Origin: Luteolibacter sp.
Lineage (GTDB): Bacteria; Verrucomicrobiota; Verrucomicrobiia; Verrucomicrobiales; Akkermansiaceae
Direction: 5' to 3'
Assembly (NCBI GenBank): GCA_965659125.1
Contig: CBFHVO010000004.1
Coordinates: 6,032 to 70,031, forward strand
Length of the DNA stretch: 64,000 nucleotides
The notes beneath the pieces were generated by a model, which was given only the letters and a program-made list of their open reading frames with translations, was not told the DNA's origin and did not search any database. Positions 3-60,764 of the stretch are shown one piece after another. How positions within the stretch are numbered: position 1 is the stretch's first letter; every line of letters starts with the position of its first letter. Position numbers and translations under genes: made by a program.

Positions 3-806
3 TTTCATAAGACACCCGCCGGTTACTACGGCATGATTGAGAACATCGATGAGAACATGGGGCGCCTGATGGCCAAGCTCGAGGAATGGGACCTTGAGAA
101 AAACACCATTCTCATTTTCATGTCGGACAACGGCACCACGCCCAACGGAGCCGGAGTGAGCTTGCCGGGCGGCATGCTCGCCAAGGGTTATCCGCTCTAC
201 AACGGCGGCATGAAGGGTTACAAGGGTTCGACCGAGGAGGGTGGCTCGAAGGTTCCCTTCCTGATTCGCTGGACAGGCAAGCTCAAAGCCGGCCGTGAGA
301 TCGACACCTTGGCCGCGCACATCGACATCCTGCCGACCTTCGCCGCGCTGGCTGGCGCGCCCATTCCTGAGGGGCAGGTCGAGGGCCGTAGCCTCTTGCC
401 TCTTCTGGATGAAAAGGCCGATGCCGACTGGGCCGATCGTTACATTTTCAACCACATCTGCCGCTGGGCCACCGGGGCCGACCCCAATGACCATAAGGAC
501 GTGAACTATTCGGTGCGCAGCCAGCGCTACCGCTACCTGGCACCCCAGGAGCGCCGGCGCAAGCACAGCAAAGGTGCGGAGCTCTATGACATGATTGCAG
601 ACCCGGGGCAGACAACAAACATCATCGACAAGCATCCCGAAATCGCCGCCAAAATGAAGGCCGCCTTCGAGCAGTATTGGAAGGAAGCTCTGCCTCTCAT
701 GGTCAATGAGAACGCTCCCATGTCACCGGAGCGCCCCTACCATGTGTGGTATCACGCACAGGAGAAGAAGGAAGGCATTCCGAAGTGGGAAAAGCCCGAC
801 CTGTGA
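3..806 (+). CDS. S1-family sulfatase, C-terminal part (N-terminus lies upstream of the window)
   Basis: The frame is open from base 3, with no stop before the track's Met at 33. It carries C-terminal arylsulfatase blocks 'ILIFMSDNG', 'GGMKGYKGSTEEGGSKVPFLIRW' and 'HIDILPTFAALAG'. Confidence 0.85.
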   Translation, partial: FHKTPAGYYGMIENIDENMGRLMAKLEEWDLEKNTILIFMSDNGTTPNGAGVSLPGGMLAKGYPLYNGGMKGYKGSTEEGGSKVPFLIRWTGKLKAGREIDTLAAHIDILPTFAALAGAPIPEGQVEGRSLLPLLDEKADADWADRYIFNHICRWATGADPNDHKDVNYSVRSQRYRYLAPQERRRKHSKGAELYDMIADPGQTTNIIDKHPEIAAKMKAAFEQYWKEALPLMVNENAPMSPERPYHVWYHAQEKKEGIPKWEKPDL

Positions 807-878: not shown

Positions 879-1604
879 TCAAGCAGCGTCTTCGTCTTCT
901 TCCGGAAGTTGGTCGCGGATGGTGTGCATCAAGACCCGCCCATTCTGCCCGGAGTAGAAAATAACCAGGGATCGCACCTTGGGGTGAAGGGGCCACCTGC
1001 CATCCAATATCATCTTCTCCCTGTCATGTTTGATGACGAATACCTGAGCCTGCACGACTCCGCGATCTCCCCGGAAATCGGGTTTGATCAGGGCCTGTTT
1101 GCTCGGGCCGATCTTGACCTTCTCTTCGTCAATTTTCGCAGAAATGTCCGACTTGGTGAGGTTGAGAAACATGAATGAACCGTATTTGAAGTGATCCGAA
1201 GCGCAGTTGATCACAGTCAACCGGTGTTGATCTTTCCCGGCTTGGGCGGGGTGTCCTATGATGAGCAACTGCTGCAAAGCATCCAAACTTTCGCACTTTG
1301 CGGCTGGCACAAACTTTTCTTGTTCGGTGTTCGCATTTCTGAGCCTGCCGATGGTCCATTGCTCCAGCAGGGGGACCGTTTGGAACTTGGAAAAATACTG
1401 ATTCGGAGTGTTGATTGCTATCCGGTTTGCTTCCCCGGTTTTGAGGTGGAAGTTTTCCATCTCAATCTGCGCAGGATAGGAGGCAAAGCTCAATTGCACC
1501 CTCTTTTTTACTGCCTCTTCTTGCCCTGTTGCCGCCGGAAGCGGGGCGCAGCAGAGGGCGATGGAGGCCCAGATGCGGATGCCCATGATTTTCGCGGTAG
1601 TCAT
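879..1604 (-). CDS. Secreted hypothetical protein, distant paralogue of the upstream gene (1636-2367)
   Basis: Start chosen at MTTAKIMGIRIWASIALCCAPLPAATG (signal peptide), 31 nt after the upstream stop. It shares 'GSFMFLN', 'LDGRW' and a C-terminal 'FY' block with the neighbouring ORF. I recognise no family. Confidence 0.6.
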   Translation of the reverse strand: MTTAKIMGIRIWASIALCCAPLPAATGQEEAVKKRVQLSFASYPAQIEMENFHLKTGEANRIAINTPNQYFSKFQTVPLLEQWTIGRLRNANTEQEKFVPAAKCESLDALQQLLIIGHPAQAGKDQHRLTVINCASDHFKYGSFMFLNLTKSDISAKIDEEKVKIGPSKQALIKPDFRGDRGVVQAQVFVIKHDREKMILDGRWPLHPKVRSLVIFYSGQNGRVLMHTIRDQLPEEDEDAA

Positions 1605-1635
1605 CGGAAATACTGGATCGAAGTTTTCCCCAGGA

Positions 1636-2367
1636 TCATTCCTCAGGTGGTGGCGCAATATCGGCTCCGATGATTTCAATCACCGGGGCAATGCTGATCT
1701 TGCCGGTTTTCGGGTGTTGGTAAAAGAATGCAACCGTTCGCATGTCCTTATCCGTGGACCAGCGTCCGTCGAGGAAGAGCTTCCAGCGCATTGCTTGCTT
1801 TTCTTTGCGTAGATATGAAAGGCTGACCTGACAGACGTCGCCATCGAAATTTGGTTTGGGAGTGAGCAGCTTTTGTTGCCCCGGTTTGAGTGCGAACTTC
1901 TTGTCTCCAATGACGCCCGCGCATTGCGAGCCGGAGGCGTTGATGAACATGAAACTGCCGCCCGGGAAATCGTTGTTTTGGGCATTGATCGGCAGCACAA
2001 CAAAGCCCGCGCTGTTGTCTTTGCCTTTGCGCAAAAGCAGGACGATCTGTTCTTTGGCCGGGAGTGCCTTGGCCTTGCCGTAAACATCGAATTTCGGGTT
2101 TCCGGCCTCATCAACTCCGCTCTTGCCAACGATGATCTGACTCAGCGCCGGAACCGAGTAGGTTTTCGACATCCGGTGGCCGGGAGTGTTGATCTCGATG
2201 GTTTCCTTGCTGCTGATGATCAACTCAACAGCTTCGGGTCTGGTATGAGCGGGGAACGCAAGAAACCTGAGTGCGATTTTTGCATCCTGAGCCATGCCGG
2301 TATGGCTGGTAGCAGCAAACAGAAGAAACAAGGCGATTGGGCGCAGGGGTGCTGGCATGAGTGGCAT
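1636..2367 (-). CDS. Secreted hypothetical protein, distant paralogue of 879-1604
   Basis: Start chosen at MPLMPAPLRPIALFLLFAATSHTGMA (signal peptide), 28 nt after the stop of the giant upstream ORF. Motifs 'GGSFMFIN' and 'LDGRW' are shared with the downstream ORF. Confidence 0.6.
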   Translation of the reverse strand: MPLMPAPLRPIALFLLFAATSHTGMAQDAKIALRFLAFPAHTRPEAVELIISSKETIEINTPGHRMSKTYSVPALSQIIVGKSGVDEAGNPKFDVYGKAKALPAKEQIVLLLRKGKDNSAGFVVLPINAQNNDFPGGSFMFINASGSQCAGVIGDKKFALKPGQQKLLTPKPNFDGDVCQVSLSYLRKEKQAMRWKLFLDGRWSTDKDMRTVAFFYQHPKTGKISIAPVIEIIGADIAPPPEE

Positions 2368-2395
2368 TCGAATCAGTTTGAAGGCAACGAGTGAA

Positions 2396-5300
2396 TCAAA
2401 CCTCGGATGCATTTAGCCAGCGGAATTGCACGACAATGAATTTGCGGCCGAAAATTTCGTTGCTCGAAGATGTCAGCTCTCGCTGTTTGGTATGATCGGG
2501 ATCCGCCGGGTCCACGTATTCCGGAGTGCGTTGTATCACGGCTTCACACCAGGCTCTGGCTTCAACGTTGCCACTCTTGTCGAGGGCGTCACCGTAAGCG
2601 CGGATCACGAAGGTGTCCCCGCGCGGGGTCAGCTGACCGGCGAAATTCTGGAGGATGTCGGCCTGGTCGACGTAGGCGGGGCTACCATAGGCAATGGCCC
2701 CATCTAAGGCCTCGGGGAACACACCGCCGATGAAGTTCTTCTCCTGCGCGCTGAAAACCCGGTCTCCACCACGGAAGCCACTATTGATCGAGCAATCGGG
2801 ATCATCAATGGCGGCCTGAAGGGCTCCCTTGAGCGACATTTCCTTGCTTGCGCTGTCGAGCCTGCGGTTCACGAATTCAGACAGGGAGAGGAAAGGCCCC
2901 CGAAGCTTGACTTGTTCGACCATGGCCTCGGCCAATTCGTCGATCTCATTGTCTGTCAACACTCTCACATCCCTCCATTGTTCCGGATCGCTGGGGTCGC
3001 TGCTGCTGCCGGTGTAAGGTTGTCCGTTGCCGAAGGATGCGGCGCCCACCGGGGTGCCCTCAGGAGTGTCCTGATTGAGATCGACGCCGCTGGTGAACGC
3101 GCTCTCGGCATTCATGAAGCTGACCGGCTTGCCTTTGAGGCTGGAGAAAACCGTCCTCCATGCATCCACCGAAGTGGAGTTGATGTTGAAGGGGCCTTTG
3201 ATGAGCAGGTGCGATGCGATTTTGTCGGCAAAGCCGTCGTTAAACTCACCGTATTGCGCGACCATTTCATCAAAAGCGGCTTCGTTCAGGTTTGCGAGGT
3301 AGGGGGTCATCCGTTTGTTGGGCAGCGGCACCTCATCAAAAAGGAACTCTCGGGCAACCTCTGTGGCACTCAGGCCGGAAGTTGCATAGAGCGGGATGCT
3401 CGAAGGCTTCGGTGTAATCGACGAGAAGAAGTAATCATCCCAGATGGCCTTGTTTACCAAGTAGGAATGATCCACGAAGGGTTCGTTGTAGGTCTCTAGG
3501 GTATTGCCAAGCTGATAGAGTTCACGGCGCCAGATGGTAAAGGCTTCGTCCTGCGGGATGTTGGGATGGGCGTAGGAGTTGCCGAGGGCCTGCACCATGT
3601 AGGGTTGTAAACCGCCGTAGCCTAGGGCTGTGTTGCGAATGTAGGCCTCGGTGCGGTATTGGCTGGGTGGGAAGCGGTCATACCAGTGAGGTGCTTCAGT
3701 GCCGAGGCTGTATCCGCTCAAGCGGGCATTGCTCAGGCTGGCGATGGAAATGGGCGGGGTAACCGGAAGTTTTTGCTGCACCACGTGCGTGGTGCCGTTG
3801 TCGGCGGTGTAGCCGCCACCATGATAGCCGTGGTTGTCCCTGGTGATCGAAACCGGAACGTCCTGGATGTTGTTGATCGGCTGGAAGAACCAGTTGTAGC
3901 CGTAGTTATACATCGAGTTGTCCGTGGTCTGGTCCAGGAACAGCGGGTTGAGCGGGGCGGAGTGAAGGAAGGGCCGGCTGGGGAACCTTCGTCCTGCGCC
4001 ATAGGCATAGGTGCCCTGCACGCTTTCATGGGTTTCGACGCCGCCCTTGATGCCGTAGTACATGAAGGCCTGGGGCATGTCATCGCGACCGTCGTAAGGG
4101 TTGCGCATCGCGCGGATGAGGTCGTTGGTGCGGCGTTCCAAAATTCCAATGGTGCGCGGGGTCTTGGTGGAAATGCCACTGACGGGGGGGAATCCCATGT
4201 GAATGATGTCCTGGCCGAACTGACGCGAGCCGTTGCCTTCCACCGTGCGCCCGGCGATCTTCCACCAATTGTAGAACCATTTCACGCCGACCAGGTTGCG
4301 GCCATGTCGCGATTTTTGGGTGAAGGCCGTTCCAAAGGAGGCGCCGCGGGGGTCGGCGCTGATTTCCGCGCGGATGTATTCGTTGCGGTTGAAGGTCATG
4401 ATGGGCCCGGCTTCAGCACGTTGGATGGCAACGGGAATCACGAAGCGGTTGGGGTCCCAGCCCGGAACCAGTTCCAATTCGGGAAGGAATGGCTCGCTGT
4501 ATCGGCCGAGCGCCCGGTTGTAACGGTGCGCCATGTCAATTTCCCTCAAGCCGTTCATCGGGTTGGTTTGAGAGCTGGCCTGGAGGGAGAAGACCTTGGC
4601 TTCACCGGGTTCGAAGCGAACCTGATTTCGGCCGGAAATGAACACGGTGCAGAGTTCTCCGCCACGGGTGTCCGTGATCCGGGTCCAACCGGCGGTGTTC
4701 GTCACGACACCGGGATCTCCGGGCAGGGCATTGGGGCTGGATGACTTGTGGATGGCCAAACTGATTTGCGGCGGGCCATCGCGCATCATGATGGTCATGT
4801 GCTCCGGATTGCTGCCGTAGTTCATCACCAGCGGCACATTGTTGGGATTCCAGAGGGTGATGGCGGGCGAGAAGCCGAAACGCAGTTCGTATTGATCTTC
4901 GCCAGCTGGTGGACGGGGGAGGATGGGCTTGGTGACAAAGTGCAGGACGTATTCCACTTTGATGGGCACCGGCGTGCGGTAGAGGCTGGTGTAGCCACGC
5001 AGGTAGTTGCCGTAATCAGTGGTATCGATGCCGTGGTCGGGACCGGTGACCATGATGCCCGAGTTGAGCAGCGAGGAGGGTGGAGTCGCGTCCGAGGTGG
5101 AGTAGATGATGCCGTCCCGCCATCCTTCTCGAACGCCGGACTCGGTGCTGTTCCATTCGGGGCGCGAGCTGTCGTAGAGTTGGTAGTAGGCGGCGAGGTC
5201 CTGGATCGGCACGCTGCCCTCACCGGTGTTGCCGTTGCGGCGTCTGACCATGTCATCAAAGCTGTAGAGCATGAAGTCGTTGCCCTCACTTTTGAGTGAA

Positions 5301-6349
5301 TTCGCTCGGTCGTAGCCGTCACCACCTCTCACAAGGTTGTAGACTTCCCCGGGCTGAATGGGTCTCTCCAAAATGGTGTTGAGACAGCGCTTCAGGCCGC
5401 CTTCACGAACGTCGGAAAATACGCCGTGGGAGTTGTAGGTGATGTCGTGGAATTGGCGCTTGAGCTCGTTCTGGCGCTGCTGCCTGCGCAGAGGGGAGTC
5501 GGAGACTTCCACCAGCTCTTGAGACTTGCGGCTGAAGACGCGGCTCAGAACCTGCTCGTCGGTGATGTCATTGAGGCCCTCCACGACTGCTGTGCCGGTC
5601 GCGGCTGGCGCCTGTGAGCGAAACAGACGCTCGGCCAGAGATATGCTCGACATCGCATTGTAGCGGTCGTCCATGATGGATGCTTTCTGGCTCTCGTCAC
5701 CCACCCACCAGCCGTAGCGGCCAACGATGTCGGTGGGATCACTGACCGAGCTCACGTTCACCAATGGGGCGTGGACATAATCGGCGGGCGGTGCCTCACC
5801 CAGCGAACCCTCACCGACCAGAATCACAGCCTTATCGTCCAGGGCGGGCATGCGGGCGGCATCGAGCACCAGGCTGCGTCCTGAGGTGATCGCATCCGCG
5901 CTGTCGTTGTCGAGCGAGACCAGCCATTCGCGGAAGTGACGCTGCCGATTGGTATCGTAGCGCGGGTGCATGCTGTCGGAACCGAGCGGGTAGATCGTCT
6001 GGTGGGAGCTGATCTCATCGATGCCGCCGTCAGCACCCGCATGCCAGGAATCCCAGACACCCGTCCAATGGGGGTTGGCCACAGCCGAGTTGGAGAGAAT
6101 GGAGGCGTTGGCCGAGATGCGCTGGTCGGGACCCATTTGTGCCTGCAGGCGATCAATGGCCATCATCAGGGCCATGCGGGCATTGGCGCGGGCTCGCTCT
6201 TCAGCCGAGGTGATGGAAGTGCTCTTAATAGAAATGACCGACAGACTCAGGAGACCAACGGCAACAACGGTCAGAACGACCAGCATGGCCACAGTGACAA
6301 TCAGCGAAAAACCAGTGGGTCGAAGTCGAGAAAGGCGGGAGCACTTCAT
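2396..6349 (-). CDS. Giant (1,317 aa) protein with a prepilin-like (class III) N-terminal leader lacking Glu+5; possibly Verru_Chthon cassette protein A-like
   Basis: A single uninterrupted ORF. The N-terminus MKCSRLSRLRPTGFSLIVTVAMLVVLTVVAVGLLSL is a basic leader, then G-F-S-L-I-V, then a hydrophobic helix, as in minor pseudopilins of the GspK type. The following 'ARANARMALMMAIDRLQ' helix is also typical of that class. I recognise no domain in the remainder. Confidence 0.7.
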   Translation of the reverse strand: MKCSRLSRLRPTGFSLIVTVAMLVVLTVVAVGLLSLSVISIKSTSITSAEERARANARMALMMAIDRLQAQMGPDQRISANASILSNSAVANPHWTGVWDSWHAGADGGIDEISSHQTIYPLGSDSMHPRYDTNRQRHFREWLVSLDNDSADAITSGRSLVLDAARMPALDDKAVILVGEGSLGEAPPADYVHAPLVNVSSVSDPTDIVGRYGWWVGDESQKASIMDDRYNAMSSISLAERLFRSQAPAATGTAVVEGLNDITDEQVLSRVFSRKSQELVEVSDSPLRRQQRQNELKRQFHDITYNSHGVFSDVREGGLKRCLNTILERPIQPGEVYNLVRGGDGYDRANSLKSEGNDFMLYSFDDMVRRRNGNTGEGSVPIQDLAAYYQLYDSSRPEWNSTESGVREGWRDGIIYSTSDATPPSSLLNSGIMVTGPDHGIDTTDYGNYLRGYTSLYRTPVPIKVEYVLHFVTKPILPRPPAGEDQYELRFGFSPAITLWNPNNVPLVMNYGSNPEHMTIMMRDGPPQISLAIHKSSSPNALPGDPGVVTNTAGWTRITDTRGGELCTVFISGRNQVRFEPGEAKVFSLQASSQTNPMNGLREIDMAHRYNRALGRYSEPFLPELELVPGWDPNRFVIPVAIQRAEAGPIMTFNRNEYIRAEISADPRGASFGTAFTQKSRHGRNLVGVKWFYNWWKIAGRTVEGNGSRQFGQDIIHMGFPPVSGISTKTPRTIGILERRTNDLIRAMRNPYDGRDDMPQAFMYYGIKGGVETHESVQGTYAYGAGRRFPSRPFLHSAPLNPLFLDQTTDNSMYNYGYNWFFQPINNIQDVPVSITRDNHGYHGGGYTADNGTTHVVQQKLPVTPPISIASLSNARLSGYSLGTEAPHWYDRFPPSQYRTEAYIRNTALGYGGLQPYMVQALGNSYAHPNIPQDEAFTIWRRELYQLGNTLETYNEPFVDHSYLVNKAIWDDYFFSSITPKPSSIPLYATSGLSATEVAREFLFDEVPLPNKRMTPYLANLNEAAFDEMVAQYGEFNDGFADKIASHLLIKGPFNINSTSVDAWRTVFSSLKGKPVSFMNAESAFTSGVDLNQDTPEGTPVGAASFGNGQPYTGSSSDPSDPEQWRDVRVLTDNEIDELAEAMVEQVKLRGPFLSLSEFVNRRLDSASKEMSLKGALQAAIDDPDCSINSGFRGGDRVFSAQEKNFIGGVFPEALDGAIAYGSPAYVDQADILQNFAGQLTPRGDTFVIRAYGDALDKSGNVEARAWCEAVIQRTPEYVDPADPDHTKQRELTSSSNEIFGRKFIVVQFRWLNASEV

Positions 6350-6707
6350 GAGTGGAGGTCTGGGTTTGTGGTGAGGAAAGGGGTAAAACTTAAGACCACA
6401 AAGTAAATACAATACTTATGTTCGCTCTAAAAGCAGTTTTTTCAAGACTGCATGGCTTGAGCATTGCCAATTTCTGGCCAGTTTTCCACTCAAACGGGCT
6501 CACCGCTGAACCGGGAGCCTGCGCGATGACGACAGCACCGCCATCGCGGTGGTGAAAGGTAGCGATATGGCCTCTGGCTCGACTGCGATCCGTGGCTGCG
6601 AAGGTGTTCCGATCGGGCGAATGGATATTGCCGGGCCCTCAGCTCGGGCCCTCAGCTGTCAGCAGAAATGGCTTTGCGGCCGGGTGCTCACCCAACATGA
6701 TTCAGGG

Positions 6708-8060
6708 GTGATCCGGATTCTCCTGCTTTCTCTGCCATTTGTCGTTTCGGCCCTCATGGCCGCCGAGAAACCCAACTTCATCATCATCTACACCGACGAT
6801 CAGGGCTACGGGGACACGTCGATGTATGGCAAGAATGGCATTGAGACCCCGCACATGGACCGCATTGCTAGGGAGGGCATGCTCTTTACCCAGATGCGCG
6901 CCAACTGCACGGTGTGCACGCCTTCGCGCGCCGCACTGCTCACCGGCATTTACGCAGATCGAGCGGGCGCGCCGGGAGTCATCCGCAACGAGCGCAGCCG
7001 TTCCTGGGGCTATCTCGATCCCAAGGTGCCGACCCTCGCCGACGAGTTGAACAAGCTTGGCTATCACACGGCGCTGGTGGGCAAGTGGCACCTTGGTGTT
7101 CAGGAACCCAACGTTCCCAACGATCGCGGCTTCGACTTTTTCCACGGCTTCTTGGGCGACATGATGAACGACTACTACAACCACAAGCGTGGTGGGGTGA
7201 ACTGGCTGCGCAAGAACAAGGAGGTGGTTCAGGAGGAGGGCAAGCACGCTACTGAGATGTTCACCGATTGGGCCATCGACTACATCGAGGGCAAGGCCCG
7301 CACGGATGATGACAAACCCTTCTTCCTCTATCTGGCCTACAACGCGCCCCACTTTCCCATCCAGCCGCCGGTGGCGTGGGTGGAGAAGGTCAAGAAGCGC
7401 CAGCCCGAGATGAGCGAGGGACGGATTCAGGCCGTGGCCTTTGTCGAGCATACCGATCACGAGATCGGCCGCGTGTTGGAATGCCTCACCAAAAACGGCT
7501 TGGACAAGAACACCGTGGTCTTCTTCACCTCTGACAACGGCGGCTCCTCTCAACACTTCCAGGAAAACGATCCCTGGCGTGGCGGCAAACAGGACCACTT
7601 CGACGGGGGGCTCAAGGTGCCCTTCGCGGTGCGCTGGCCCGGAGTGGTTAAGCCCGGCACCACCAGTGATTATCAGGGACTCACTTTCGACATCTTTTCC
7701 ACCCTCATCGAAGCCGCTGGCGGCACACCGCGCGACGACCTTGATGCAGTCAGCCTCCTGCCACTACTCAAGGGCGAAGACTTCAACACTCCCGATCGTG
7801 AGCTCTACTTCGTGCGCCGCGAGGGTGGGGGCAATCGGGTCGGCATGGCCTATCACGCCCTGATCAAGGATGGCTACAAGCTCATGCACAACAGTCCGAT
7901 GGAGCCGCTTGAGCTCTACAACCTGAACGAGGACCCGCAGGAGAAGACTGACCTCTTCAAGAAGGAGCCCAAGACCGTGCAAAAGATGATCAGTCGCATG
8001 GAGCATTATATCCAAAAGGGCGGGATGACCCCATGGATGGGGCCTCTACCGAGAAAATGA
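6708..8060 (+). CDS. S1-family sulfatase (Cys-type, formylglycine-dependent)
   Basis: Contains 'KPNFIIIYTDDQGYGD', the active-site box 'CTVCTPSRAALLTG' (C-x-P-x-R) and 'GKWHLG'. The probable start is the GTG at 6708, giving signal peptide VIRILLLSLPFVVSALMA. The track ORF extends to 6549. Confidence 0.9.
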   Translation: MIRILLLSLPFVVSALMAAEKPNFIIIYTDDQGYGDTSMYGKNGIETPHMDRIAREGMLFTQMRANCTVCTPSRAALLTGIYADRAGAPGVIRNERSRSWGYLDPKVPTLADELNKLGYHTALVGKWHLGVQEPNVPNDRGFDFFHGFLGDMMNDYYNHKRGGVNWLRKNKEVVQEEGKHATEMFTDWAIDYIEGKARTDDDKPFFLYLAYNAPHFPIQPPVAWVEKVKKRQPEMSEGRIQAVAFVEHTDHEIGRVLECLTKNGLDKNTVVFFTSDNGGSSQHFQENDPWRGGKQDHFDGGLKVPFAVRWPGVVKPGTTSDYQGLTFDIFSTLIEAAGGTPRDDLDAVSLLPLLKGEDFNTPDRELYFVRREGGGNRVGMAYHALIKDGYKLMHNSPMEPLELYNLNEDPQEKTDLFKKEPKTVQKMISRMEHYIQKGGMTPWMGPLPRK

Positions 8061-8178: not shown

Positions 8179-9729
8179 ATGAAGGTTCTGCTAATTACTC
8201 TCTTCTTAGTAATGAGTTTCTCCGGCTTCGCAGCAGACAAGCCCAACGTCCTGCTCATTCTGGTCGATGATCTCGGCTGGTCGGACTTGGGCTGCTACGG
8301 ATCCGAGATCGAGACTCCCGTGATGGATAAGTTGGCTGCCAATGGCCTGCGCTTCAGTAGTTTCTACTCCACCGCCAAATGCCACTCCTCGCGTGTGAGT
8401 TTGCTCTCCGGTCGCTGGTGTCGCCAGGCCGGCGATGAGAGTTTGAAGCGTGCGGTGACCATTCCCGAGGTGCTGCAGCCCGCTGGTTATTTCACCGCCA
8501 TGACCGGCAAGTGGCACTTGCAGAAGGAGCCCACCGACTTCGGCTTCGAGCAATACTGGGGTCACCTCTCGGGAGCCACGCACTTCTTCAAGGGGGACAA
8601 AACCTTCCGCCTTAATGGCGAGAAGTGGGAGGTTCCCGAGAAGGACTTCTACACCACCACAGCCAACGCGGACTTCGCCTTGAAGTTTCTCAAGAAGGCC
8701 CGCGAGAGCGAAAAGCCTTGGCTACTCTACATGGCCTTCAATGCGCCCCACGCGCCGCTCCACTGCCTCGAAGAGGACTACAAGAGATACAAGGGGAAAT
8801 ACACCAAGGGATGGGATGCGGTGTATGCTGAGCGCATCGCCCGTCAGAAGGAGCTCAATCTATTTGGTGGCGAATTTGATGCGCCCCAGCGCCCCGAGCA
8901 TCTTCCCGCATGGAGAGATCTGCGCGAGGATCACAAGAAATGGGAAGAGAAGCGCATGACCACCCTGGCGGCGATGATCGATCGCATCGATCAGGAGATC
9001 GGTCGGGTGGTTACCGATATTGAGAAGGCGGCAGAGCTGGACAACACCCTCATCCTCTTCTTCTCGGACAACGGCGCCTGTCCCTACGACCGGCGCAACA
9101 TCCGTCCCAATTTGATGCCGTGGGACCCACGCACGCATTGGACAGATAGCACCGGTTGGGCTTGGGCCCGCAACGCACCCTTCCGCTTCTACAAGCAGAA
9201 CCAGTTTGAGGGTGGGGCATCCACTCCCGCCGTCATGCATTGGCCGAATGGAATGAAAAACACCAAGCTCAAGGGTGGGATCACGCATCAGCCTGCTCAC
9301 CTCGTCGACGTTCTGCCGACTATCGCTGAGGTGGCGGGTGCCGAGATTCCCAAGGAGTATCCGGGTCGCCAGCCAACTCCCTTAGCTGGCACTTCATTGG
9401 TTCCCATCCTGAGGGGTCAGGCTCTTGAAAAGCGTCCGCCCATTCATCTGATGTTCAATATGGACCGTGGGCTGCGTGATGGAGATTGGAAACTGGTTAG
9501 CTTCAAAGCCAAGAAGTGGGAGCTCTACAACTTGGCCGAGGATCGCTGCGAATTGAACAATCTCGCTGAGAAGCATCCCGAGATCGTGGAGAAGATGGCC
9601 AGAGAATGGCACCGCATGGCCGAGGAGGAGGTGCTCGCCACCGCCAAGGAGCAGAAACCGGTTTCGGATGAAGGCCCGCCGCACGCCAATCGAGAGTGGA
9701 CCCGCTTCGGCAAGCCGGCGCCCAAGTAG
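8179..9729 (+). CDS. S1-family sulfatase with a non-canonical active-site box C-H-S-S-R
   Basis: Has signal peptide MKVLLITLFLVMSFSGFA, plus 'KPNVLLILVDDLGWSDLGCYG', 'GKWHL' and 'LILFFSDNGA'. The active-site box reads 'AKCHSSRVSLLSG' (nt 8380-8394) instead of C-x-P-x-R-x4-T-G. Confidence 0.85.
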   Translation: MKVLLITLFLVMSFSGFAADKPNVLLILVDDLGWSDLGCYGSEIETPVMDKLAANGLRFSSFYSTAKCHSSRVSLLSGRWCRQAGDESLKRAVTIPEVLQPAGYFTAMTGKWHLQKEPTDFGFEQYWGHLSGATHFFKGDKTFRLNGEKWEVPEKDFYTTTANADFALKFLKKARESEKPWLLYMAFNAPHAPLHCLEEDYKRYKGKYTKGWDAVYAERIARQKELNLFGGEFDAPQRPEHLPAWRDLREDHKKWEEKRMTTLAAMIDRIDQEIGRVVTDIEKAAELDNTLILFFSDNGACPYDRRNIRPNLMPWDPRTHWTDSTGWAWARNAPFRFYKQNQFEGGASTPAVMHWPNGMKNTKLKGGITHQPAHLVDVLPTIAEVAGAEIPKEYPGRQPTPLAGTSLVPILRGQALEKRPPIHLMFNMDRGLRDGDWKLVSFKAKKWELYNLAEDRCELNNLAEKHPEIVEKMAREWHRMAEEEVLATAKEQKPVSDEGPPHANREWTRFGKPAPK

Positions 9730-9823
9730 CGCCTTTTGTATTCAAGAGGATGCCTTGAATCCCACCTCATTGACGCATACGGCCTTGATAAGAGCTGGCG
9801 CCTTTTGCAGTATACCCAAGCCC

Positions 9824-12334
9824 ATGCCCTGTGCCTGTTTTGCAGCCCCATTTTGCATCTCTTTTTGCCTTTCTTTGTCGCTGGCTCTCTTTTTTTCAGC
9901 CTGCAAGCCCAAGCAGCAGGATGAAGCGGAGACTGCACCCAATGATGCCGGGCAGGAAGCGATGCTGGTCACGGCACCCGCCCCGCTTTCTTTTAACTCG
10001 GATATTCGGCCCATCCTCTCGGACAAGTGCTTTGCCTGCCACGGCTTTGACGAGAAGACCCGTGAGGAAGACCTTCGTCTCGACACCCACGAGGGCGCGA
10101 CTGAAGACCTCGGCGGCTATGCGGCGATCGTGCCGGGCAATCGCAAAAAGAGCGAGGTGTGGATTCGCATCACCGACCGCGAAGACCCGATGCCGCCGCT
10201 CAAGTATCATGGCCAAGGGTTTCACAAGACCCTGAGCGAAGAGGAGATTGAGTTGATTGGCCGCTGGATCGATGAGGGCGCGCCCTACGAGGATCACTGG
10301 GCCTACACGCCGGTGGAAAAGCCCGAAGCGCCCAAGGCGGCAAATCCCTTGGACGGCTTTATCCAAGCCAAGCTCAAGCCACGCGGCATCAAGCCTTCGC
10401 CCCGGGCCGATGAACGCACCTTGCTACGCCGCGTCACCTCCGATCTCACGGGTCTTCCACCGACCCCACAACAGGCGGCCGCCTTCATGGCAGATGAGTC
10501 GCCGGATGCTTACGAGAAATACGTCGAGAGTCTCATGGCCAGTGAGGCCTACGGTGAGCATCTTGCCGTGTGGTGGCTCGATCTGGTGCGCTACGCCGAC
10601 ACCATCGGCATTCACAGCGACAACCCGCGAAACGTTTGGCCCTACCGCGATTGGGTGATCCAGTCGCTCAACGATAACATGCCATTCGATCAGTTCAGCA
10701 TCATGCAGTTGGCCGGTGACCTGATGCAGGATGAACCGACCACCGATCAACTGATTGCCAGCGCCTACAATCGCCTCAACCTCGCCACCGAAGAGGGAGG
10801 AGCGCAGGCCAAGGAATACCAGGTGATTTACAACGTCGACCGCGTCACCAACTACGGTGAGGTCTGGCTTGGCTCTTCAACCGGATGTGCGCAATGCCAC
10901 GATCACAAGTTCGATCCCATTAGCATGGAGGACTTTTACACGCTCGCTGCCTTCTTCGGCAGTCTGAACGGAGCGGCCGTCGGTGTGGAGCGCGGTTATC
11001 CCAAGCACGAGCCGCCCTACATCTTCCTGCCCAAGGACGAAGCGGAGAAAAAGCAGATTGCCGACGTCGAAAAACGCTACCGCGAGTTCATCGACAAATA
11101 CCCCGATGCTCCCTTGATCGAGGAATACTTTGGCAGTCGCGGCAACGCCCGCCCGGCATTGCCCGAGGGCGGCATGCCGAGTTGGGGCAAGGACTTTGAG
11201 AAATTACTGGGTGAGCGCCACAAGTTGGCCGAGAAAATCAACACCATTCCTGTCGCTCGCGATCTCAATACGCCGCGCATCGTGCGCAAGCTGGCTCGTG
11301 GTAACTGGCAGGACGAAAGTGGCGAGATCATGAGTCCTGCCACCCCGCGCTTCCTGGGTGGCCCGCGTTCAACCGAGGACAAGCGCGTGAACCGCCTCGA
11401 TCTGGCCAAGTGGACCGTCTCCAAGGACAACCCGCTTGCGGCGCGCGCCGTGGTCAACCGCCTGTGGGCCCGCTACATGGGCAGCCCGCTTTCAAGCAAC
11501 CCCATCGACCTGGGCAGTCAGGGCACGGCTCCCACCCACCCGAATCTGCTCGATTGGATGGCTGCTGAATTCATGGAGCAGGGCTGGGACCTGAAGCACA
11601 TGATCAAGCTCATCGTTACCAGCGACACCTACCTGCAGTCCTCCGATGCTCGTGCTGATCTGGCCGATATCGACCCGGACAACAACAAGCTCTTCGCCCG
11701 CCAATCGGCCATCCGTCTGCCGGCGGAGGTCATGCGTGATCAGGCGCTCGCTGTCTCGGGGCTGCTCAAGCCGCGGGTGGGTGGACCCAGCGTTTTCCCG
11801 TATCAGCCTGATGGTCATTGGGACGCTCTCAACTTCCCGAGACGCAAGTGGCCCACCAGCAAGGGCGACGACCTCTATCGCCGCGGCATGTACACCTGGG
11901 TGCAGCGCAGTTTCCCGCATCCGCAGATGGTGACCTTCGATGCACCCTCGCGTGAGCGCTGTATCGGAGAGCGCTTTCCGGCAACCACGCCGCTGCAGGC
12001 CCTGGCCCTGCTCAACGGGCCGGCCTTTGTGGAATCGGCCCGCGTGCTCGCGCAACGCCTCATCACCGAGGGCGAGGATGATGCAAGTCGCTTGGAGATT
12101 CTCTATCGCAAGGTGCTCAACCGCTCGCCGCGCACTGAGGAGATGGCCAAGCTAAACGACCTGCTCACCAGTCAGCGTGAGCATTTCAGTGCCAAGCCCG
12201 AAGACGCCGCCAAACTGGCTGGCGCCGGGGAGGCCATGCCCGTATCTAACGACCTCAAACCCGTGGAAGTTGCCGCGTGGACCAGCCTCTGTCGCGTGGT
12301 TCTCAACCTTCACGAAACCATCACCCGAAACTAA
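9824..12334 (+). CDS. PSCyt1 (heme-c CxxCH) / DUF1549 (PSCyt2) / DUF1553 (PSD1) lipoprotein
   Basis: Lipobox-like signal MPCACFAAPFCISFCLSLSLALFFSAC. 'IRPILSDKCFACHG' is the planctomycete cytochrome c domain. 'LLRRVTSDLTGLPPT' and '[12 protein letters not shown]' are DUF1549 hallmarks, and the C-terminal region is DUF1553-like. Confidence 0.85.
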   Translation: MPCACFAAPFCISFCLSLSLALFFSACKPKQQDEAETAPNDAGQEAMLVTAPAPLSFNSDIRPILSDKCFACHGFDEKTREEDLRLDTHEGATEDLGGYAAIVPGNRKKSEVWIRITDREDPMPPLKYHGQGFHKTLSEEEIELIGRWIDEGAPYEDHWAYTPVEKPEAPKAANPLDGFIQAKLKPRGIKPSPRADERTLLRRVTSDLTGLPPTPQQAAAFMADESPDAYEKYVESLMASEAYGEHLAVWWLDLVRYADTIGIHSDNPRNVWPYRDWVIQSLNDNMPFDQFSIMQLAGDLMQDEPTTDQLIASAYNRLNLATEEGGAQAKEYQVIYNVDRVTNYGEVWLGSSTGCAQCHDHKFDPISMEDFYTLAAFFGSLNGAAVGVERGYPKHEPPYIFLPKDEAEKKQIADVEKRYREFIDKYPDAPLIEEYFGSRGNARPALPEGGMPSWGKDFEKLLGERHKLAEKINTIPVARDLNTPRIVRKLARGNWQDESGEIMSPATPRFLGGPRSTEDKRVNRLDLAKWTVSKDNPLAARAVVNRLWARYMGSPLSSNPIDLGSQGTAPTHPNLLDWMAAEFMEQGWDLKHMIKLIVTSDTYLQSSDARADLADIDPDNNKLFARQSAIRLPAEVMRDQALAVSGLLKPRVGGPSVFPYQPDGHWDALNFPRRKWPTSKGDDLYRRGMYTWVQRSFPHPQMVTFDAPSRERCIGERFPATTPLQALALLNGPAFVESARVLAQRLITEGEDDASRLEILYRKVLNRSPRTEEMAKLNDLLTSQREHFSAKPEDAAKLAGAGEAMPVSNDLKPVEVAAWTSLCRVVLNLHETITRN

Positions 12335-12336
12335 CG

Positions 12337-13827
12337 ATGTCTCATCAAGCGCAACACCCCTTCCAAATGAAGAAGGTTCTCATGGAGCGAGCCCACGCCG
12401 AGGAGTGCCTGCTCAGCCAGACCCGCCGAAAGTTTTTGACGAGTGCCTTCGGTTCGGTCGGCTCATTGGCGCTTGGCTCCATGATGGGATCCAAGTTGAT
12501 GGCGGCCACTGGGCGCGAGCTCGCCGAGGGCCTGCCCGCGGGCGCGAAACCCTTCCTCACTCATGCCCCCAAGGCGAAGCGGGTGATTCACCTCTGCATG
12601 GCGGGTGGGCCCAGCCACCTCGAGACCTTCGACTACAAGCCGACGCTCAGAAAGATGCACAATCAGGCCATGCCGGAGTCCCTGACCAAGGGCCAGCCCA
12701 TTGCGCAGCTGCAGGGTCAGGCGCTCAAGGCCTTCGAGCCGCAAACCACTTTTACCAAATGCGGCAAGGCCGGCATCGAAATCGCCGACATCTTTCCCAA
12801 CATCCAGAAGCTTGCCGACAAGATTTGTGTGATCAAGTCGATGAAGACCGAGCAGATCAACCACGACCCGGCGCACACCTTCTTCAACACCGGCACCATT
12901 CGCCCGAACAATCCCAGCATCGGCTCTTGGCTGCTCTACGGCTTAGGCTCCATGAACGAGAACCTTCCCGGTTTTGTCGTGCTGACTTCGCAGGGCGGTG
13001 GTCAGGGTCAGCCCATCTCGGCGCGCCAATGGCACAATGGCTTTCTGGACAGCAAGTATCAGGGCGTGAAGCTCAATTCGGTTGGGGATCCGGTCTACTA
13101 CGTCGGCTCGCCTGACGGTGTCTCCAATCCCTGCCAGTCCGAGGTCATCGAGGCCATCAATCAACTCAATCAGGATCACGCCAAGGTGGTCGACGATCCC
13201 GAGATTTCGAGTCGCATCGCCCAGTATGAACTGGCCTTCCGCATGCAGATGGCAGTACCCGAACTCACCGATTTCTCAGACGAGAATTCCAAGACTATTG
13301 AACAATACGGCTGCACTCCCGGTGACGGATCCTTTGCCAGCAACTGCCTGCTCGCACGTCGCATGGCCGAGCGCGGTGTGCGCTTTATCCAGCTCTATCA
13401 CCGCGGATGGGATCATCACGGCGGCATCCGCAAGCGTATCCCCGGTGCGGCCAAGATGGTCGATCAAGGCACTTGGGCCCTGATCAACGATCTCAAGCAG
13501 CGTGGCATGCTTGACGATACCCTCATCATCTGGGGCGGGGAGTTCGGCCGCACGCCCATGGCGCAGGGCGACGGACGCGACCACCACATCAAGGGTTACT
13601 CCATGTTTCTTTGTGGCGGTGGTATCCAGCCAGGTATCACCTACGGCAACACCGATGACTTCGGCTACAACGCCGTCGAGGATGTGGTTCATGTCCGCGA
13701 CCTCCACGCCACCATGCTCCATCAACTGGGCATCAACCACGAAAGGATGACCTTCAAGCATCAAGGCCTGGATGCCCGCCTGACCGGTGTCGAGCCCTCC
13801 AAGATCCTCAAGGGGATCATTGCCTGA
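12337..13827 (+). CDS. DUF1501 protein (sulfatase/alkaline-phosphatase-like fold) with a twin-arginine signal
   Basis: The ATG lies 2 nt after the upstream stop. Tat motif 'TRRKFLTSAFGSVGSLALG'. Conserved DUF1501 blocks are '[18 protein letters not shown]', 'WDHH' and 'GGEFGRTP'. Confidence 0.85.
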   Translation: MSHQAQHPFQMKKVLMERAHAEECLLSQTRRKFLTSAFGSVGSLALGSMMGSKLMAATGRELAEGLPAGAKPFLTHAPKAKRVIHLCMAGGPSHLETFDYKPTLRKMHNQAMPESLTKGQPIAQLQGQALKAFEPQTTFTKCGKAGIEIADIFPNIQKLADKICVIKSMKTEQINHDPAHTFFNTGTIRPNNPSIGSWLLYGLGSMNENLPGFVVLTSQGGGQGQPISARQWHNGFLDSKYQGVKLNSVGDPVYYVGSPDGVSNPCQSEVIEAINQLNQDHAKVVDDPEISSRIAQYELAFRMQMAVPELTDFSDENSKTIEQYGCTPGDGSFASNCLLARRMAERGVRFIQLYHRGWDHHGGIRKRIPGAAKMVDQGTWALINDLKQRGMLDDTLIIWGGEFGRTPMAQGDGRDHHIKGYSMFLCGGGIQPGITYGNTDDFGYNAVEDVVHVRDLHATMLHQLGINHERMTFKHQGLDARLTGVEPSKILKGIIA

Positions 13828-23797: not shown

Positions 23798-23928
23798 GGT
23801 GATATCCAAGCGGTCATGACAGTCCATATCCAGCACGAAGGGTGCCCGATGGCATGTGGTGGGCAGATTGGACAAAATGGAATTCCAATGTAGATTTTCC
23901 ATTAAATATGCCCATCGCCACTTCAAGC

Positions 23929-25155
23929 ATGTTTCGACTTCAGGCTCTGGTGCTGGTCCTTTTGCCATGGCCGGCACAGGCGGTAATTCTTTTTTCCGGG
24001 GATAATTCAGCCAACCTGACGGCTCCTGATGCAGCGCGTGAGGATGTCTTCAACTCGGTGGCACGGGTGTGCAACGCGACTGGCACTTTGAACAACGGTT
24101 ATGGCAGTGCTGTGCGAATACGTGGTAAGTATTTGCTTACTGCCAACCATGTAAACTCATCCGGTGCTGGCCATGTGACCTTTGATGGGGTGACGGTTTA
24201 CCCGCTGGATGCTGCTTTTGGTAAGAGGCGCATTGGAACTGCTGATCTGGCCTTAATCAAGCTTGTGGATGACCCCGGCTTGAATGAAGTGAAGTTGTTT
24301 GATGCTGTGGAGGGGGATATTCCAAGGTCCTTCAGTGGTTCTACAGCCACGATTATCGGCGTTGGTAGAGGTCGAAGCCCTGGCGACACCGATGGCGATG
24401 CCATTTGGAGTTGGGGTGACAACTCGACGATGGTCAAGCGTTGGGGAACCAACCGTATTGAGAGGGCTGTTGGTTTTACTCCTGATAACCAACCATACGA
24501 TGCCGAATATCAGGGCTTGGAGACAACTCTCGACGGAAGTGCTGGCAATGACGAAGCGGCGACCACGATCTATGATTCTGGCTGTGGTTTGTTCGTCGAG
24601 CACAACGGCGAGTGGAAGCTGGCCGGCATAGCGACCTTGGTCAGCAATAGCGGATCATCCACCTTCGGTGGCCCCACCCCCGACTCAAACTATTTCGTGC
24701 GAATCAATCAGTTGGCAGCTGCCATCGAAGCGGCCATCCCCGACCCCACCACTTACTCCGGATGGAAGGTCGATCACAGCCTCTATGGTGCGAATGCCAA
24801 CGATGACGCCGACACCGATGGCGACGGCATTCCGCAGTTTTTAGAGTATGCTCTTGGAGGTAACCCCAACAATCCCTCCCGCGACATCCTGCCCGTGCAG
24901 CAGATGACCGAGGACGGCGGCAGCCTATATCTCGAATTGTCGGTGACCCGACCCGTCGGCTTGCAGGGTCTCAGCTACCTCCCCCAGACGGACACCACCC
25001 TCACGAGTTGGCCGACGGATTCAACCGGTATTGCCGATCCAACGCCCACTCCCACCGACAACGGAGATGGCACCGAAACGCTGATTTATCGCCGATCCGA
25101 GGCACTGTCCGCGAATCCGAGGGCCTTCATGCGCCTCAAGGTTCAATCCAACTGA
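23929..25155 (+). CDS. Secreted trypsin-like (S1) serine protease with a ~130-aa C-terminal module shared with the next gene
   Basis: Signal MFRLQALVLVLLPWPAQA (alternative start 23908). Triad contexts are 'LLTANHV' (His), 'DLALIKL' (Asp) and 'YDSGCGLF' (Ser). The C-terminal 133 aa are roughly 60% identical by hand alignment to the C-terminus of 25313-28924. Confidence 0.75.
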   Translation: MFRLQALVLVLLPWPAQAVILFSGDNSANLTAPDAAREDVFNSVARVCNATGTLNNGYGSAVRIRGKYLLTANHVNSSGAGHVTFDGVTVYPLDAAFGKRRIGTADLALIKLVDDPGLNEVKLFDAVEGDIPRSFSGSTATIIGVGRGRSPGDTDGDAIWSWGDNSTMVKRWGTNRIERAVGFTPDNQPYDAEYQGLETTLDGSAGNDEAATTIYDSGCGLFVEHNGEWKLAGIATLVSNSGSSTFGGPTPDSNYFVRINQLAAAIEAAIPDPTTYSGWKVDHSLYGANANDDADTDGDGIPQFLEYALGGNPNNPSRDILPVQQMTEDGGSLYLELSVTRPVGLQGLSYLPQTDTTLTSWPTDSTGIADPTPTPTDNGDGTETLIYRRSEALSANPRAFMRLKVQSN

Positions 25156-28300: not shown

Positions 28301-28924
28301 TTGGGCAATCTCAGCGTTGCCAAGCTGGTTCTGCATGGGGCAGCCACTGTGCCTGACGACACCTACCTTGTGATCACGGGAAGCGCGACCATCGACACCA
28401 GCACTGTTGAGAATCTGGGCGCCGAAAACGCCGGAACCTTTGAGGGCAAATATGGCTACTTCAACATTAACACGGATGGGGATCTGGAATTGGTGGTCAG
28501 CGCCACTGATCCCGCCGACACCAGCAGCTACGCAGGCTGGAAGAGCTTTCACAGCCTTTCCGGATCATCGGCAAATGATGATGCCGATAATGATGGCGAC
28601 GGCATCCCGCTGTTGCTCGAATATGCCCTTGGCGGGGATCCGGGCGTGGCTTCGCGCGGCATTCTGCCGACCCGCCAGTTCAGCGATGATGCCGGCAATA
28701 CCTATCTCGAGCTGGTGGTGACCCGACCCACCGGCCTGACTGACATCAACTACACCGTGCAGACTGACACAACGCTCACGAGCTGGCCGGTGGATTCTGC
28801 AGGGGTGATTCTGTTCTCAACCACCGACCATGGCAATGACACTGAAACCCTCGTCTACCGAAGAGCGGCAGCGGTGTCGAGCAGTGCACGTGCGTTCATT
28901 CGCTTGAAGGTAACAGCCAACTGA
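25313..28924 (+). CDS. Giant surface protein: unknown N-domain, 2 Ig-like repeats, autotransporter-associated beta-strand (PATR) repeats, shared C-terminal module
   Basis: Signal peptide present. There are two tandem ~100-aa repeats ('P..I.S.NPADN.TG...A.L.ATFD..I......I.....'). PATR-type units include 'GLIKEGQGVLLLNQANTFTGPVRIHGGLVRV' and 'GITKAGTGTLTF'. The C-terminus ends '...ARAFIRLKVTAN'. Confidence 0.8.
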   Translation: MRTDQRAKIFSPCGIVGGLCAMLTALSVEVHGQTLAPLTAAGQSFAGYFVEFDGKEWLLIGRGREGWEFDTDGQGSVDAVSQNVGTSGAFAPACYSDAIINDLLNQAGITDMANLEVRLARASNPGGTGVYQDVRWTNFTGNGGNFTWNLEDSRYGVTIEYKNAPYGLSGAATGIHTGRDTRDANISNNAGRIFTWAWGGHGNQKGFSYGNSVSNGSNSATSFLWEYGNENHAIPYTEVYIPYISNDDQPPSIDSLNPADNDTGIYIGADLVATFDERIALRDGGTITITDLTDGSSTRTITLPNAQVSVSARDLIINLSTNLEVSTQYEVTINSLAIQDTYSTPNAYGGTASGEWTFTTADPDPTAPVITNFSPADNSTGVTNNADDLSLVATFDDNILFGSGNITLVDLATPANNRVIPIGDPRLSITDNRLTITLASDLEMSVEYALQIDAGALINYSAVPFAGISNTTTWSFTTRAGQDGAWTLNNNGQWFDTNNWSGGLIAGGTVANAGGTADFSTIDINNHRTITITGAPAVIGSLILGDSNSSHDYRFSNGTGGSLVFDGPGDTAYLTDTSIRNQLFNHGFVVNDQLVMDISGDTEGSESNPLEGNGTIGGLEVRGEISGPGGITVNGGRLQLRNGSTDTYSGPTILNNGAQVMWRNGNGFTNESTNSNIIINNGVYNRYYDSSVTLQLGTGPRQIQILGGTSGFSANRNGSYTLNNTGATIVWGSAYFNPDKLVLTSNWANTYGKTILHNRIDLNGQSRTISILCNSSNDTGYGNINYPIVDNAATGTGLIKEGQGVLLLNQANTFTGPVRIHGGLVRVTHAAGLGTQADGGLMFTEGGTTLDMRTSLTIRELSSTDIYFGTVTNGGTSILTLTVDQDTDSTYAGVIDDGYTGGQTGITKAGTGTLTFPFDEEIGYGVGSYHTGPTLVNEGAVIMDADWDAAYSDVTVAAGASFGGKGQMAGDLTLADGAKLLFDPAETLTCNGFSVDLGNLSVAKLVLHGAATVPDDTYLVITGSATIDTSTVENLGAENAGTFEGKYGYFNINTDGDLELVVSATDPADTSSYAGWKSFHSLSGSSANDDADNDGDGIPLLLEYALGGDPGVASRGILPTRQFSDDAGNTYLELVVTRPTGLTDINYTVQTDTTLTSWPVDSAGVILFSTTDHGNDTETLVYRRAAAVSSSARAFIRLKVTAN

Positions 28925-37214: not shown

Positions 37215-37227
37215 GACATCCCTTGCC

Positions 37228-60744: not shown

Positions 60745-60764
60745 CCCGCAAGCAACCTTTCGCA

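Follow-up and report, generated by a model that had tools for sequence, protein, structure and literature searches.

In a 64-kb stretch of Luteolibacter sp. DNA (the window; position 1 is the first letter of the stretch), analysis of open reading frames (ORFs) places one three-gene unit on the minus strand, in the order A, P2, P1:

2396 to 6349, minus strand: gene A, encoding a pilin-headed giant of 1,317 amino acids (aa), with its stop codon at 2396 to 2398.
1636 to 2367, minus strand: gene P2, 243 aa from the MPLMPAP start, encoding a Sec-signal protein, the canonical partner of A.
879 to 1604, minus strand: gene P1, 241 aa from the MTTAKIM start, a divergent paralogue of P2 and a clade-specific second copy.

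The frame of A is open from 2396 to 6412 (minus strand); the first ATG, at 6349, yields the 1,317-aa protein MKCSRLSRLRPTGFSLIVTVAMLVVLTVVAVGLL, and a TTG lies upstream at 6412. P2 has a further in-frame ATG upstream at 2412, and that start would overlap A. The starts chosen here match the gene calls in L001, a metagenomic locus 84% identical to the window unit, and give intergenic gaps of 28 and 31 nt, confirming by ORF coordinates what the first-pass annotation of this DNA had described, namely two proteins of about 240 aa following A on the same strand at that spacing. That these genes are real, rather than chance ORFs, is clear from more than 500 full-length homologues of A and from the 376 loci at which relatives of A were found. 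A scan for promoters and terminators yielded nothing informative.

A starts with MKCSRLSRLRPTG followed by FSLIVTVAMLVVLTVVAVGLLSLS, the two meeting at a cleavage-like site (G/F-S-L-I-V, the slash marking the junction) that leads into a hydrophobic helix. Two features can be read from this part of the protein:

6311 to 6349, minus strand: putative leader peptide MKCSRLSRLRPTG, 13 aa with a net charge of +4, ending in an invariant Gly-1, read from the sequence.
6140 to 6313, minus strand: predicted prepilin-type alpha-1 region of the GspK/PilX class, residues 13 to 70 of A, with Phe at +1, Val at +5, a hydrophobic alpha-1N and an amphipathic alpha-1C.

In the 104 relatives of A in which the N-terminus is retained, Gly-1 and Phe+1 never vary (104/104); position +2 is A, S or T, +3 is Leu and +4 is V or I in 103 of them, while +5 varies among V, A, I, S and T without ever being Glu. 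The leader, Gly-1, Phe+1 and helix by which type IV pilins are recognized are therefore present and conserved in A, and Glu+5 is absent; the N_methyl models (TIGR02532 and Pfam) do not match A. In NCBIfam, the window protein matches TIGR02600, the model for Verru_Chthon cassette protein A, with 23 bits (E = 1.6e-5) over residues 13 to 70, corresponding to profile positions 1 to 58 of 1,296, against a cut-off of 332.3 bits. Otherwise it has one chance-level match to PilV and none to NF037980, the model for GspK of type II secretion systems (T2SSs). When 34 relatives were scanned singly, TIGR02600 was matched by 30 and NF037980, at profile positions 2 to 65, by 22, with scores of 14 to 36 bits (at most 28.8 bits for NF037980, against a cut-off of 130). 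In the members inspected one by one, these matches were confined to the first 60 to 70 residues (6/6 for TIGR02600). Seven more divergent paralogues of A were considered as possible true members of TIGR02600 and rejected, their matches, of up to 41 bits, likewise being N-terminal only. A profile-profile comparison (hhalign) of the A family with a 38-sequence GspK alignment gave a probability of 92% (E = 5.7e-7) over columns 4 to 73 and nothing else. Because of the conserved motif and of this hidden Markov model (HMM) and profile-profile similarity to GspK, the head of A is best read as a conserved prepilin-type signal of the GspK/PilK class, in line with the first-pass description of a class III signal with Val at +5.

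The rest of A is a different matter. The homologue search recovered more than 500 full-length relatives of 1,230 to 1,480 aa at 41 to 84% identity, from Luteolibacter, Haloferula, Roseibacillus, Prosthecobacter and other Akkermansiaceae and Verrucomicrobiales; they are annotated as hypothetical or by the COG names PulG, PilX or PilV. The family is confined to Verrucomicrobiales and near relatives, with one match labelled Chthoniobacteraceae and one labelled Coraliomargarita. Pfam found no family in the whole of A, including PF21687 and PF03934, which are found in real GspK proteins, and a PDB profile search returned no match at E <= 10. As a structural model for A we used its homologue P0068 (45% identical; residues 35 to 1234, with alpha-1C kept), predicted by AlphaFold2 from a 114-sequence alignment. 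The model is confident (pLDDT 90.8, pTM 0.91), and Foldseek searches of PDB and BFVD with it returned no match below E = 0.1, with no pilin and no GspK listed. Mapped to the window protein, it has a long N-terminal helix at residues 45 to 72 followed by a large mixed alpha/beta body, in which three regions stand out:

4010 to 4819, minus strand: the most variable stretch of A, residues about 511 to 780, with a column entropy of 1.7 to 2.4 bits.
2399 to 3832, minus strand: the highly conserved C-terminal part of A, residues 840 to 1317, with the lowest entropy and many invariant residues.
2414 to 2614, minus strand: three long terminal beta-strands predicted at residues 1246 to 1256, 1262 to 1278 and 1302 to 1312 (DSSP of the P0068 AlphaFold2 model, mapped to A).

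The variable stretch is a candidate specificity region. Across most of residues 840 to 1317 column entropy is only 0.7 to 1.3 bits, and the last strand, RKFIVVQFRWL, is near-invariant, with F1309, R1310, W1311 and L1312 at least 90% conserved. Alignment of the A body with GspK by hhalign, using A minus its N-terminus and five sub-segments, gave nothing significant (probability below 20%). The best segment was a short FNxN motif (P = 0.0016, probability 16%), and the co-linearity of the three weak body matches is a hint at most. A GspK-like C-terminus, read by eye from helix-hairpin-helix motifs (FNINSTS and LRGPFLSLSEF) and the terminal strands, was considered and dropped, since hhalign gave it no support. 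By these comparisons, A is thus a member of neither TIGR02600 nor GspK and belongs to a separate, unmodelled family. It is placed outside TIGR02600 because of its score of 23 bits against 332.3 and because the match covers residues 13 to 70 only, and the earlier suggestion that A is a Verru_Chthon protein A is not upheld.

P1 and P2 align at 31% identity across 192 aa (BLASTP, E = 2e-26), a similarity that identifies them, at the sequence level, as true paralogues. The LDGRW and F-Y blocks reported in the first-pass annotation are indeed common to both, whereas GGSFMF occurs in P2 alone (GGSFMFIN), the equivalent block of P1 being YGSFMFLN. P1 also scores 179 bits against the P-family HMM. Neither protein has a match in Pfam or NCBIfam at E <= 1, TIGR02596, TIGR02598 and TIGR02599 included, and sequence and profile searches of the PDB with P returned no match. 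The AlphaFold2 model of P2 (pLDDT 90.6) has a signal peptide followed by an all-beta fold predicted to consist of tandem immunoglobulin (Ig)-like beta-sandwiches. In Foldseek it comes closest to the extracellular domain of PepT1/PepT2, which is two-lobed and Ig-like (E = 3e-7, TM about 0.5), and its top 50 matches include no pilin and no PapD-family chaperone. Membership of P1 and P2 among the PapD-like periplasmic chaperones was considered and is not supported, since P2 has two Ig-like sandwiches and yet no PapD-family protein in that top 50. The BLASTP alignment, the lack of any pilin-family match and the all-beta fold of P2 agree with the first-pass view of P1 and P2 as non-pilin paralogues with signal peptides. 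Near the C-terminus of P, the final conserved block forms a beta-strand, followed in P2 by an 11-residue tail.

Relatives of P are numerous: among 1.84 billion cluster representatives (50% identity), 1,418 were found at E <= 1e-3, 543 at <= 1e-10 and 141 at <= 1e-30. Almost all of the 150 best relatives listed are stand-alone proteins of about 230 aa. A hydrophobic N-terminal run is present in 122 of 148 relatives and a lipobox-like motif in 4 of 148, which points to P proteins being Sec-exported and not lipoproteins. The only clear multidomain context seen is P0399, a 1,094-aa secreted protein with a P-family domain at residues 892 to 1092. P0399 was considered as an A-P fusion, which would have been a sign of interaction, and rejected, its N-terminal part being unrelated to A and without a Pfam match. 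A reading of the unit as an anti-phage defence system was also rejected, as PADLOC models match neither A nor P2, and P1 has a single match at chance level (E = 0.014).

The genomic neighbourhood of A was surveyed using one genome per GTDB species, which gave 376 loci with relatives of A; 80 of these were fetched, and A and P HMMs were run on the six-frame ORFs of all fetched loci. A P gene adjoins every full-length A gene examined (n = 90), counting one A-A-P locus. P lies directly downstream on the same strand in 80 of the 90 (63 with one P and 17 with two), it lies divergently upstream in nine, all in a Roseibacillus-dominated clade, and the one remaining A gene belongs to the locus arranged A-A-P. 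The only stretches without a P match are those truncated at or inside the A gene. Consistent with this linkage, A-to-A and P-to-P distances across 78 modules are strongly correlated (Mantel r = 0.92; the highest of 500 permutations reached 0.21), and the modules have therefore been inherited and duplicated as units; this co-divergence does not prove physical binding. Modules are present in multiple copies, often in tandem, with at least five in single metagenome-assembled genomes (MAGs). A second A subfamily, full-length and highly diverged, has a P subtype of its own as partner. In a complete Luteolibacter MAG genome of 3.09 Mb (CP121322.1, 821104-855714; loci L045 and L068), four A-P modules follow one another in tandem across about 30 kb, the two A subfamilies alternating.

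P2-type genes are universal in these modules, whereas P1-type copies occur only in the three closest loci, L001 and L005 (78%) and L006 (43%). What is conserved is A together with a P2-type gene, P1 being a local extra copy; the A-P2-P1 triad whose conservation the first-pass annotation had wanted tested is thus not conserved as such, while the A-P co-conservation that it had named as a check turned out to be very strong. The three window genes represent a single copy of an A-P module that recurs in Verrucomicrobiales and is self-contained. Neither the A nor the P family is covered by a Pfam or NCBIfam model, by a solved structure or by any paper among those searched.

Pfam scans that took in essentially all large ORFs of the 64 kb revealed no T2SS or type IV pilus component, bearing out the first-pass remark that no such machinery lies near the unit, and a six-frame motif scan of the window found one prepilin-like N-terminus, that of A. 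In searches of the surroundings of the related modules with the E. coli Gsp proteins (phmmer), no homologue of GspD, GspE, GspF or GspO was found, only GspG-like matches; a lone weak GspE match proved to be RecA. Neither the window nor the vicinity of about 85 loci has gsp genes, the pseudopilin genes of L050 and L080 excepted. Canonical prepilin genes with Glu+5 are present in 3 of 85 stretches, and with 82 of 85 stretches having none nearby, the "orphan" state remarked on at this locus is normal for the family. In L050 (30-6558), from a Verrucomicrobiales MAG, A-P is followed by three prepilin-type genes of 231, 235 and 310 aa, whose N-termini resemble those of GspH/cassette D, XpsI (GspI) and cassette C/HpsC, and, judged by sequence, A appears to take the GspK position in what would be a complete set of minor pseudopilins. 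In L080 (1-13511), three consecutive units, each ending in a P pair, precede a bona fide gspG (122 bits, cut-off 88.85); the first unit is cut at the contig start, leaving only its P pair visible, and the locus ends about 100 bases past gspG.

Within a type IV filament, Glu5 forms a pair with the N-terminus of the subunit next to it; a subunit that lacks Glu5 (GspK/PilK) caps the tip. We lean, with somewhat better than even confidence, towards the view that A-P modules are interchangeable tips for a pseudopilus or pilus built by machinery encoded elsewhere. A would be made with a class III (prepilin-type) signal and cut by prepilin peptidase after Gly13 and, since it lacks Glu+5 like subunits of the GspK/PilK family, would come to lie at the very top of a type II secretion pseudopilus or of a type IV-like filament, with the assembly machinery for that filament encoded elsewhere in the genome. 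The body of about 1,250 residues, with no detectable structural relative, would be presented at the filament tip, and the C-terminal beta-strands probably fold back on the N-terminal helix to close a pilin-like domain in cis, much as those of GspK and CpaL/TadG do. P2, a tandem-Ig protein exported by Sec, would serve, with P1 as an extra copy, as a dedicated periplasmic partner, either a stabilizer or assembly factor or a tip co-subunit. With several diverged modules per genome, one machine would have alternative tips for adhesion or substrate capture.

Several lines of evidence argue for such tips. The invariance of Gly-1 and Phe+1, the absence of Glu+5 and the similarity to GspK and TIGR02600 over 60 to 70 residues all suggest a tip-class subunit. 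In PilK-family proteins, a small beta-sheet is completed by a terminal strand (PMC13533445), which is supplied in cis in GspK and in the roughly 600-residue CpaL/TadG, and in trans by PilC/PilY1 or MshQ, encoded directly downstream (PMC13533445). The alpha-1 helix, large folded body and three terminal strands modelled for A would reproduce the layout of GspK and CpaL described there. The A-P linkage and co-divergence, and the pseudopilin genes that adjoin A-P in the rare loci L050 and L080, point in the same direction. There is also a precedent in Myxococcus, in which four paralogous tip clusters, three of them outside the kil cluster, are thought to be interchangeable, and in which each cluster encodes a large pilin with a distal domain that has no structural homologue in the PDB (PMC12075869); the repertoire of modules per genome and the variable centre of A are consistent with a similar arrangement.

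Several observations weigh against filament tips. Past residue 70 or so, A has no supported similarity to pilins or GspK by hhalign (below 20%), Pfam or Foldseek, and its last 480 residues are more strongly conserved than is usual for an adhesin tip. Neither the window nor the flanks of about 85 loci contain a prepilin peptidase, ATPase, platform protein or secretin, and 82 of 85 stretches lack canonical partners of the GspI/J type. One alternative is a membrane-anchored periplasmic complex that forms no filament; we consider it unlikely, although it fares best among those considered. The N-terminus of A would then be an uncleaved signal-anchor, or a cleaved but unpolymerized pilin-like anchor, tethering a large periplasmic protein to the inner membrane; P would bind that protein in the periplasm, and the complex would resemble archaeal sugar-binding proteins with class III signals. 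The lack of adjoining machinery or pilin partners at the window and at almost all related loci, the A body without a detectable pilin fold and the ordinary Sec signal of P, which is not that of a lipoprotein, are all in keeping with such a complex, and the highly conserved C-terminal half of A fits an enzyme or fixed complex better than a variable adhesin. However, a plain anchor needs neither an invariant Gly-1/Phe+1 nor a GspK-like alpha-1C, and A-P adjoins pseudopilin genes in L050 and L080. Moreover, distance from the T2SS operon is normal for pseudopilin genes in Verrucomicrobiota, where PulG-like genes are scattered, with 67 homologues in one genome and the T2SS elsewhere (PMC13274419).

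A second alternative, which we judge to be quite improbable, is that P, not A, supplies the last beta-strand of the pilin domain of A, as in PilX-PilY1 and MshP-MshQ, and that P is an obligatory tip co-subunit licensing assembly. The gene order invites this comparison, P lying directly after a PilK-class gene as pilY1 lies after pilX and mshQ after mshP (PMC13533445); strict co-occurrence and co-divergence of A and P would also follow from it, and the beta-strand formed by the final conserved block lies towards the C-terminal end of P. In the monomer model, however, that strand is an integral, high-confidence part of the second Ig domain of P, in P2 it is followed by the 11-residue tail, and A has near-invariant terminal strands of its own. 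That the unit is a degenerate or reduced Verru_Chthon cassette, that is, a true TIGR02600 protein A minus B, C and D, is very improbable and is refuted as a claim of membership: in spite of the N-terminal match, the similar overall length and the UniRef name "Verru_Chthon cassette protein A" on the A relative P0116, the window protein scores 23 bits against 332.3 at profile positions 1 to 58 of 1,296 and its relatives and the seven divergent paralogues behave alike, P1 and P2 match none of TIGR02596, TIGR02598 and TIGR02599, and the A-P arrangement is a conserved unit and no remnant.

Comparison with the known systems shows where the A-P module stands. It shares with the Verru_Chthon cassette its phylum, and A shares with protein A (TIGR02600) a comparable size and a GspK-like N-terminal helix. 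Unlike protein A, the A family matches the profile at positions 1 to 60 only, at 14 to 41 bits against 332, and unlike B, C and D of the four-gene cassette (TIGR02598, TIGR02599 and TIGR02596), which are not found with A in the window, the partners in this module of two or three genes are tandem-Ig proteins with Sec signals and not prepilin-type proteins. Literature searches found no paper that mentions the name of this cassette. With the tip minor pilins GspK and PilK (PilX), A has in common a prepilin-type leader, a hydrophobic alpha-1, the lack of Glu+5 and profile similarity over about 70 residues, and its long conserved beta-strands at the extreme C-terminus recall the cis-strand arrangement of GspK (PMC13533445). 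Unlike GspK, A is about four times larger (1,317 versus about 330 aa), has Phe at +1 where V, M or S is usual, lacks PF21687 and PF03934 as well as any fold match, gives no match to NF037980 (cut-off 130 bits), and lies outside a gspGHIJK operon; in place of GspI and GspJ it has a non-pilin Ig-like protein as its partner.

The resemblance extends to the TadG/CpaL and KilN tips, which are likewise large minor pilins with an N-terminal pilin part and a distal domain without a homologue in the PDB; the functionally important extreme C-terminal strand of TadG/CpaL may have its counterpart in the conserved terminal strands modelled for A. As with the Kil "Tip" clusters, several paralogous clusters per genome lie away from the machinery, those of Kil being thought to be interchangeable (PMC12075869). 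Unlike the Kil and Tad tips, which are heterotrimers (KilL, KilM and KilN, or TadE, TadF and TadG), the module has one pilin-like protein with non-pilin partners. At roughly double the size of CpaL, A has no detectable sequence relationship to these tips, and its N-terminus is of the T2SS/T4a type (G/F), not the Flp/Tad type. In pilX-pilY1 and mshP-mshQ, as in the module, a PilK-class gene is followed by a gene for a Sec-exported non-pilin partner, but here the sizes are reversed, a giant pilin being paired with a partner of about 240 aa, and no beta-propeller or PilY1-like fold was detected. Overall, the A-P module would work most like a GspK/CpaL-type tip pilin and the Kil "Tip" clusters, and is a member of none of these systems. 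It is set apart by the size of A, the body without a structural relative, the non-pilin tandem-Ig partner, the tandem multi-copy arrays and the restriction to Verrucomicrobiales.

On either side of the unit in the window lie sulfatase genes on the plus strand, which diverge from it at its 5' end and converge on it at its 3' end:

33 to 806, plus strand: sulfatase flanking the unit, recognized by translation.
6549 to 8060 and 8179 to 9729, plus strand: sulfatases flanking the unit, recognized by Pfam.

Pfam assigns the ORFs of the window to sulfatases, GH78, GH95, SASA esterases, PSCyt/PSD and DUF1501 pairs, sugar-metabolism enzymes, transporters and housekeeping genes. Between 33 and about 45000 lie at least four sulfatases, a GH78 rhamnosidase, a GH95 enzyme, two SASA esterases and a 3-keto-disaccharide hydrolase, together with GFO/IDH/MocA oxidoreductases, a ROK kinase, and SSF and MFS transporters, and the part of the window from 33 to 47000 around the unit looks like a sulfated-polysaccharide degradation region. 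Two copies of the pair PSCyt1/PSCyt2/PSD1 (DUF1549/DUF1553) plus DUF1501, typical of the Planctomycetes-Verrucomicrobia-Chlamydiae group, lie at 9668-13827 and 57352-62228; the latter carries an inserted Laminin_G_3 domain, and the former is missing from the otherwise syntenic locus L001. A 1,203-aa Big_5/PATR protein is encoded at 25313-28924, about 19 kb from the unit. Four ORFs of 200 to 440 aa (23842-25155, 37120-37929, 46406-47098 and 34370-34981) have no Pfam match at E <= 1e-5; some of them overlap adjoining genes and may not be real.

The first-pass annotation had placed the unit beside sulfatases and had suggested a role in substrate capture. The sulfatases do flank the unit here, but they are not a conserved neighbour: a sulfatase is present in the flanks of 17 of 84 loci. 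The wider context varies, with sulfatases and carbohydrate-active enzymes (CAZymes) at some loci, housekeeping genes at others and giant PATR-repeat proteins at two. At these two loci (L085, 14822-23978, and L086, 14787-23945), A-P is followed by a giant protein (4,671 and 3,117 aa, respectively) whose PATR, PKD-like and HpiC1-like domains give it the look of an autotransporter or adhesin. A general association of the module with sulfatases or CAZymes was rejected, as it holds for a minority of loci only, and the sulfatase adjacency, not being conserved, therefore lends little support to the substrate-capture idea. Elsewhere in Verrucomicrobiota, one PulG-like gene lies in an alginate-utilization cluster, and a pseudopilin is over-expressed on alginate (PMC13274419). 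The link between A-P and the use or capture of polysaccharides is weak, and the function of the modules is one that we infer.

If the modules are indeed tips, as we favour, exchangeable tips would extend from the Tad pili of predatory Myxococcus to T2SS-like systems of an environmentally and gut-relevant phylum, with a different make-up, a giant pilin and a non-pilin Ig-like partner, and with a confidently predicted tip body of 1,250 residues that has no structural relative. To our knowledge, the PilI-PilJ-PilK trimer is otherwise universal in the tips of type IV filaments, and we know of no SusC/D-type importers in Verrucomicrobiota. A bolder proposal, to which we attach little likelihood, is that the modules represent a new class of type IV filament tip, in which a giant PilK-class pilin and a non-pilin tandem-Ig protein would replace that trimer and in which 4 to 7 diverged modules per genome would serve as exchangeable capture heads on one T2SS-like machine that binds and reels in polysaccharides or surfaces. 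Such capture heads would connect to the pili-dependent polysaccharide uptake that has reportedly been proposed for Planctomycetes, and to the pseudopilin over-expressed on alginate mentioned above. With A at 376 loci of species-representative genomes and about 1,400 representatives of P, these are common families without a model, a solved relative or a paper, and the A-P module is a candidate handle on attachment and substrate capture in Verrucomicrobia.

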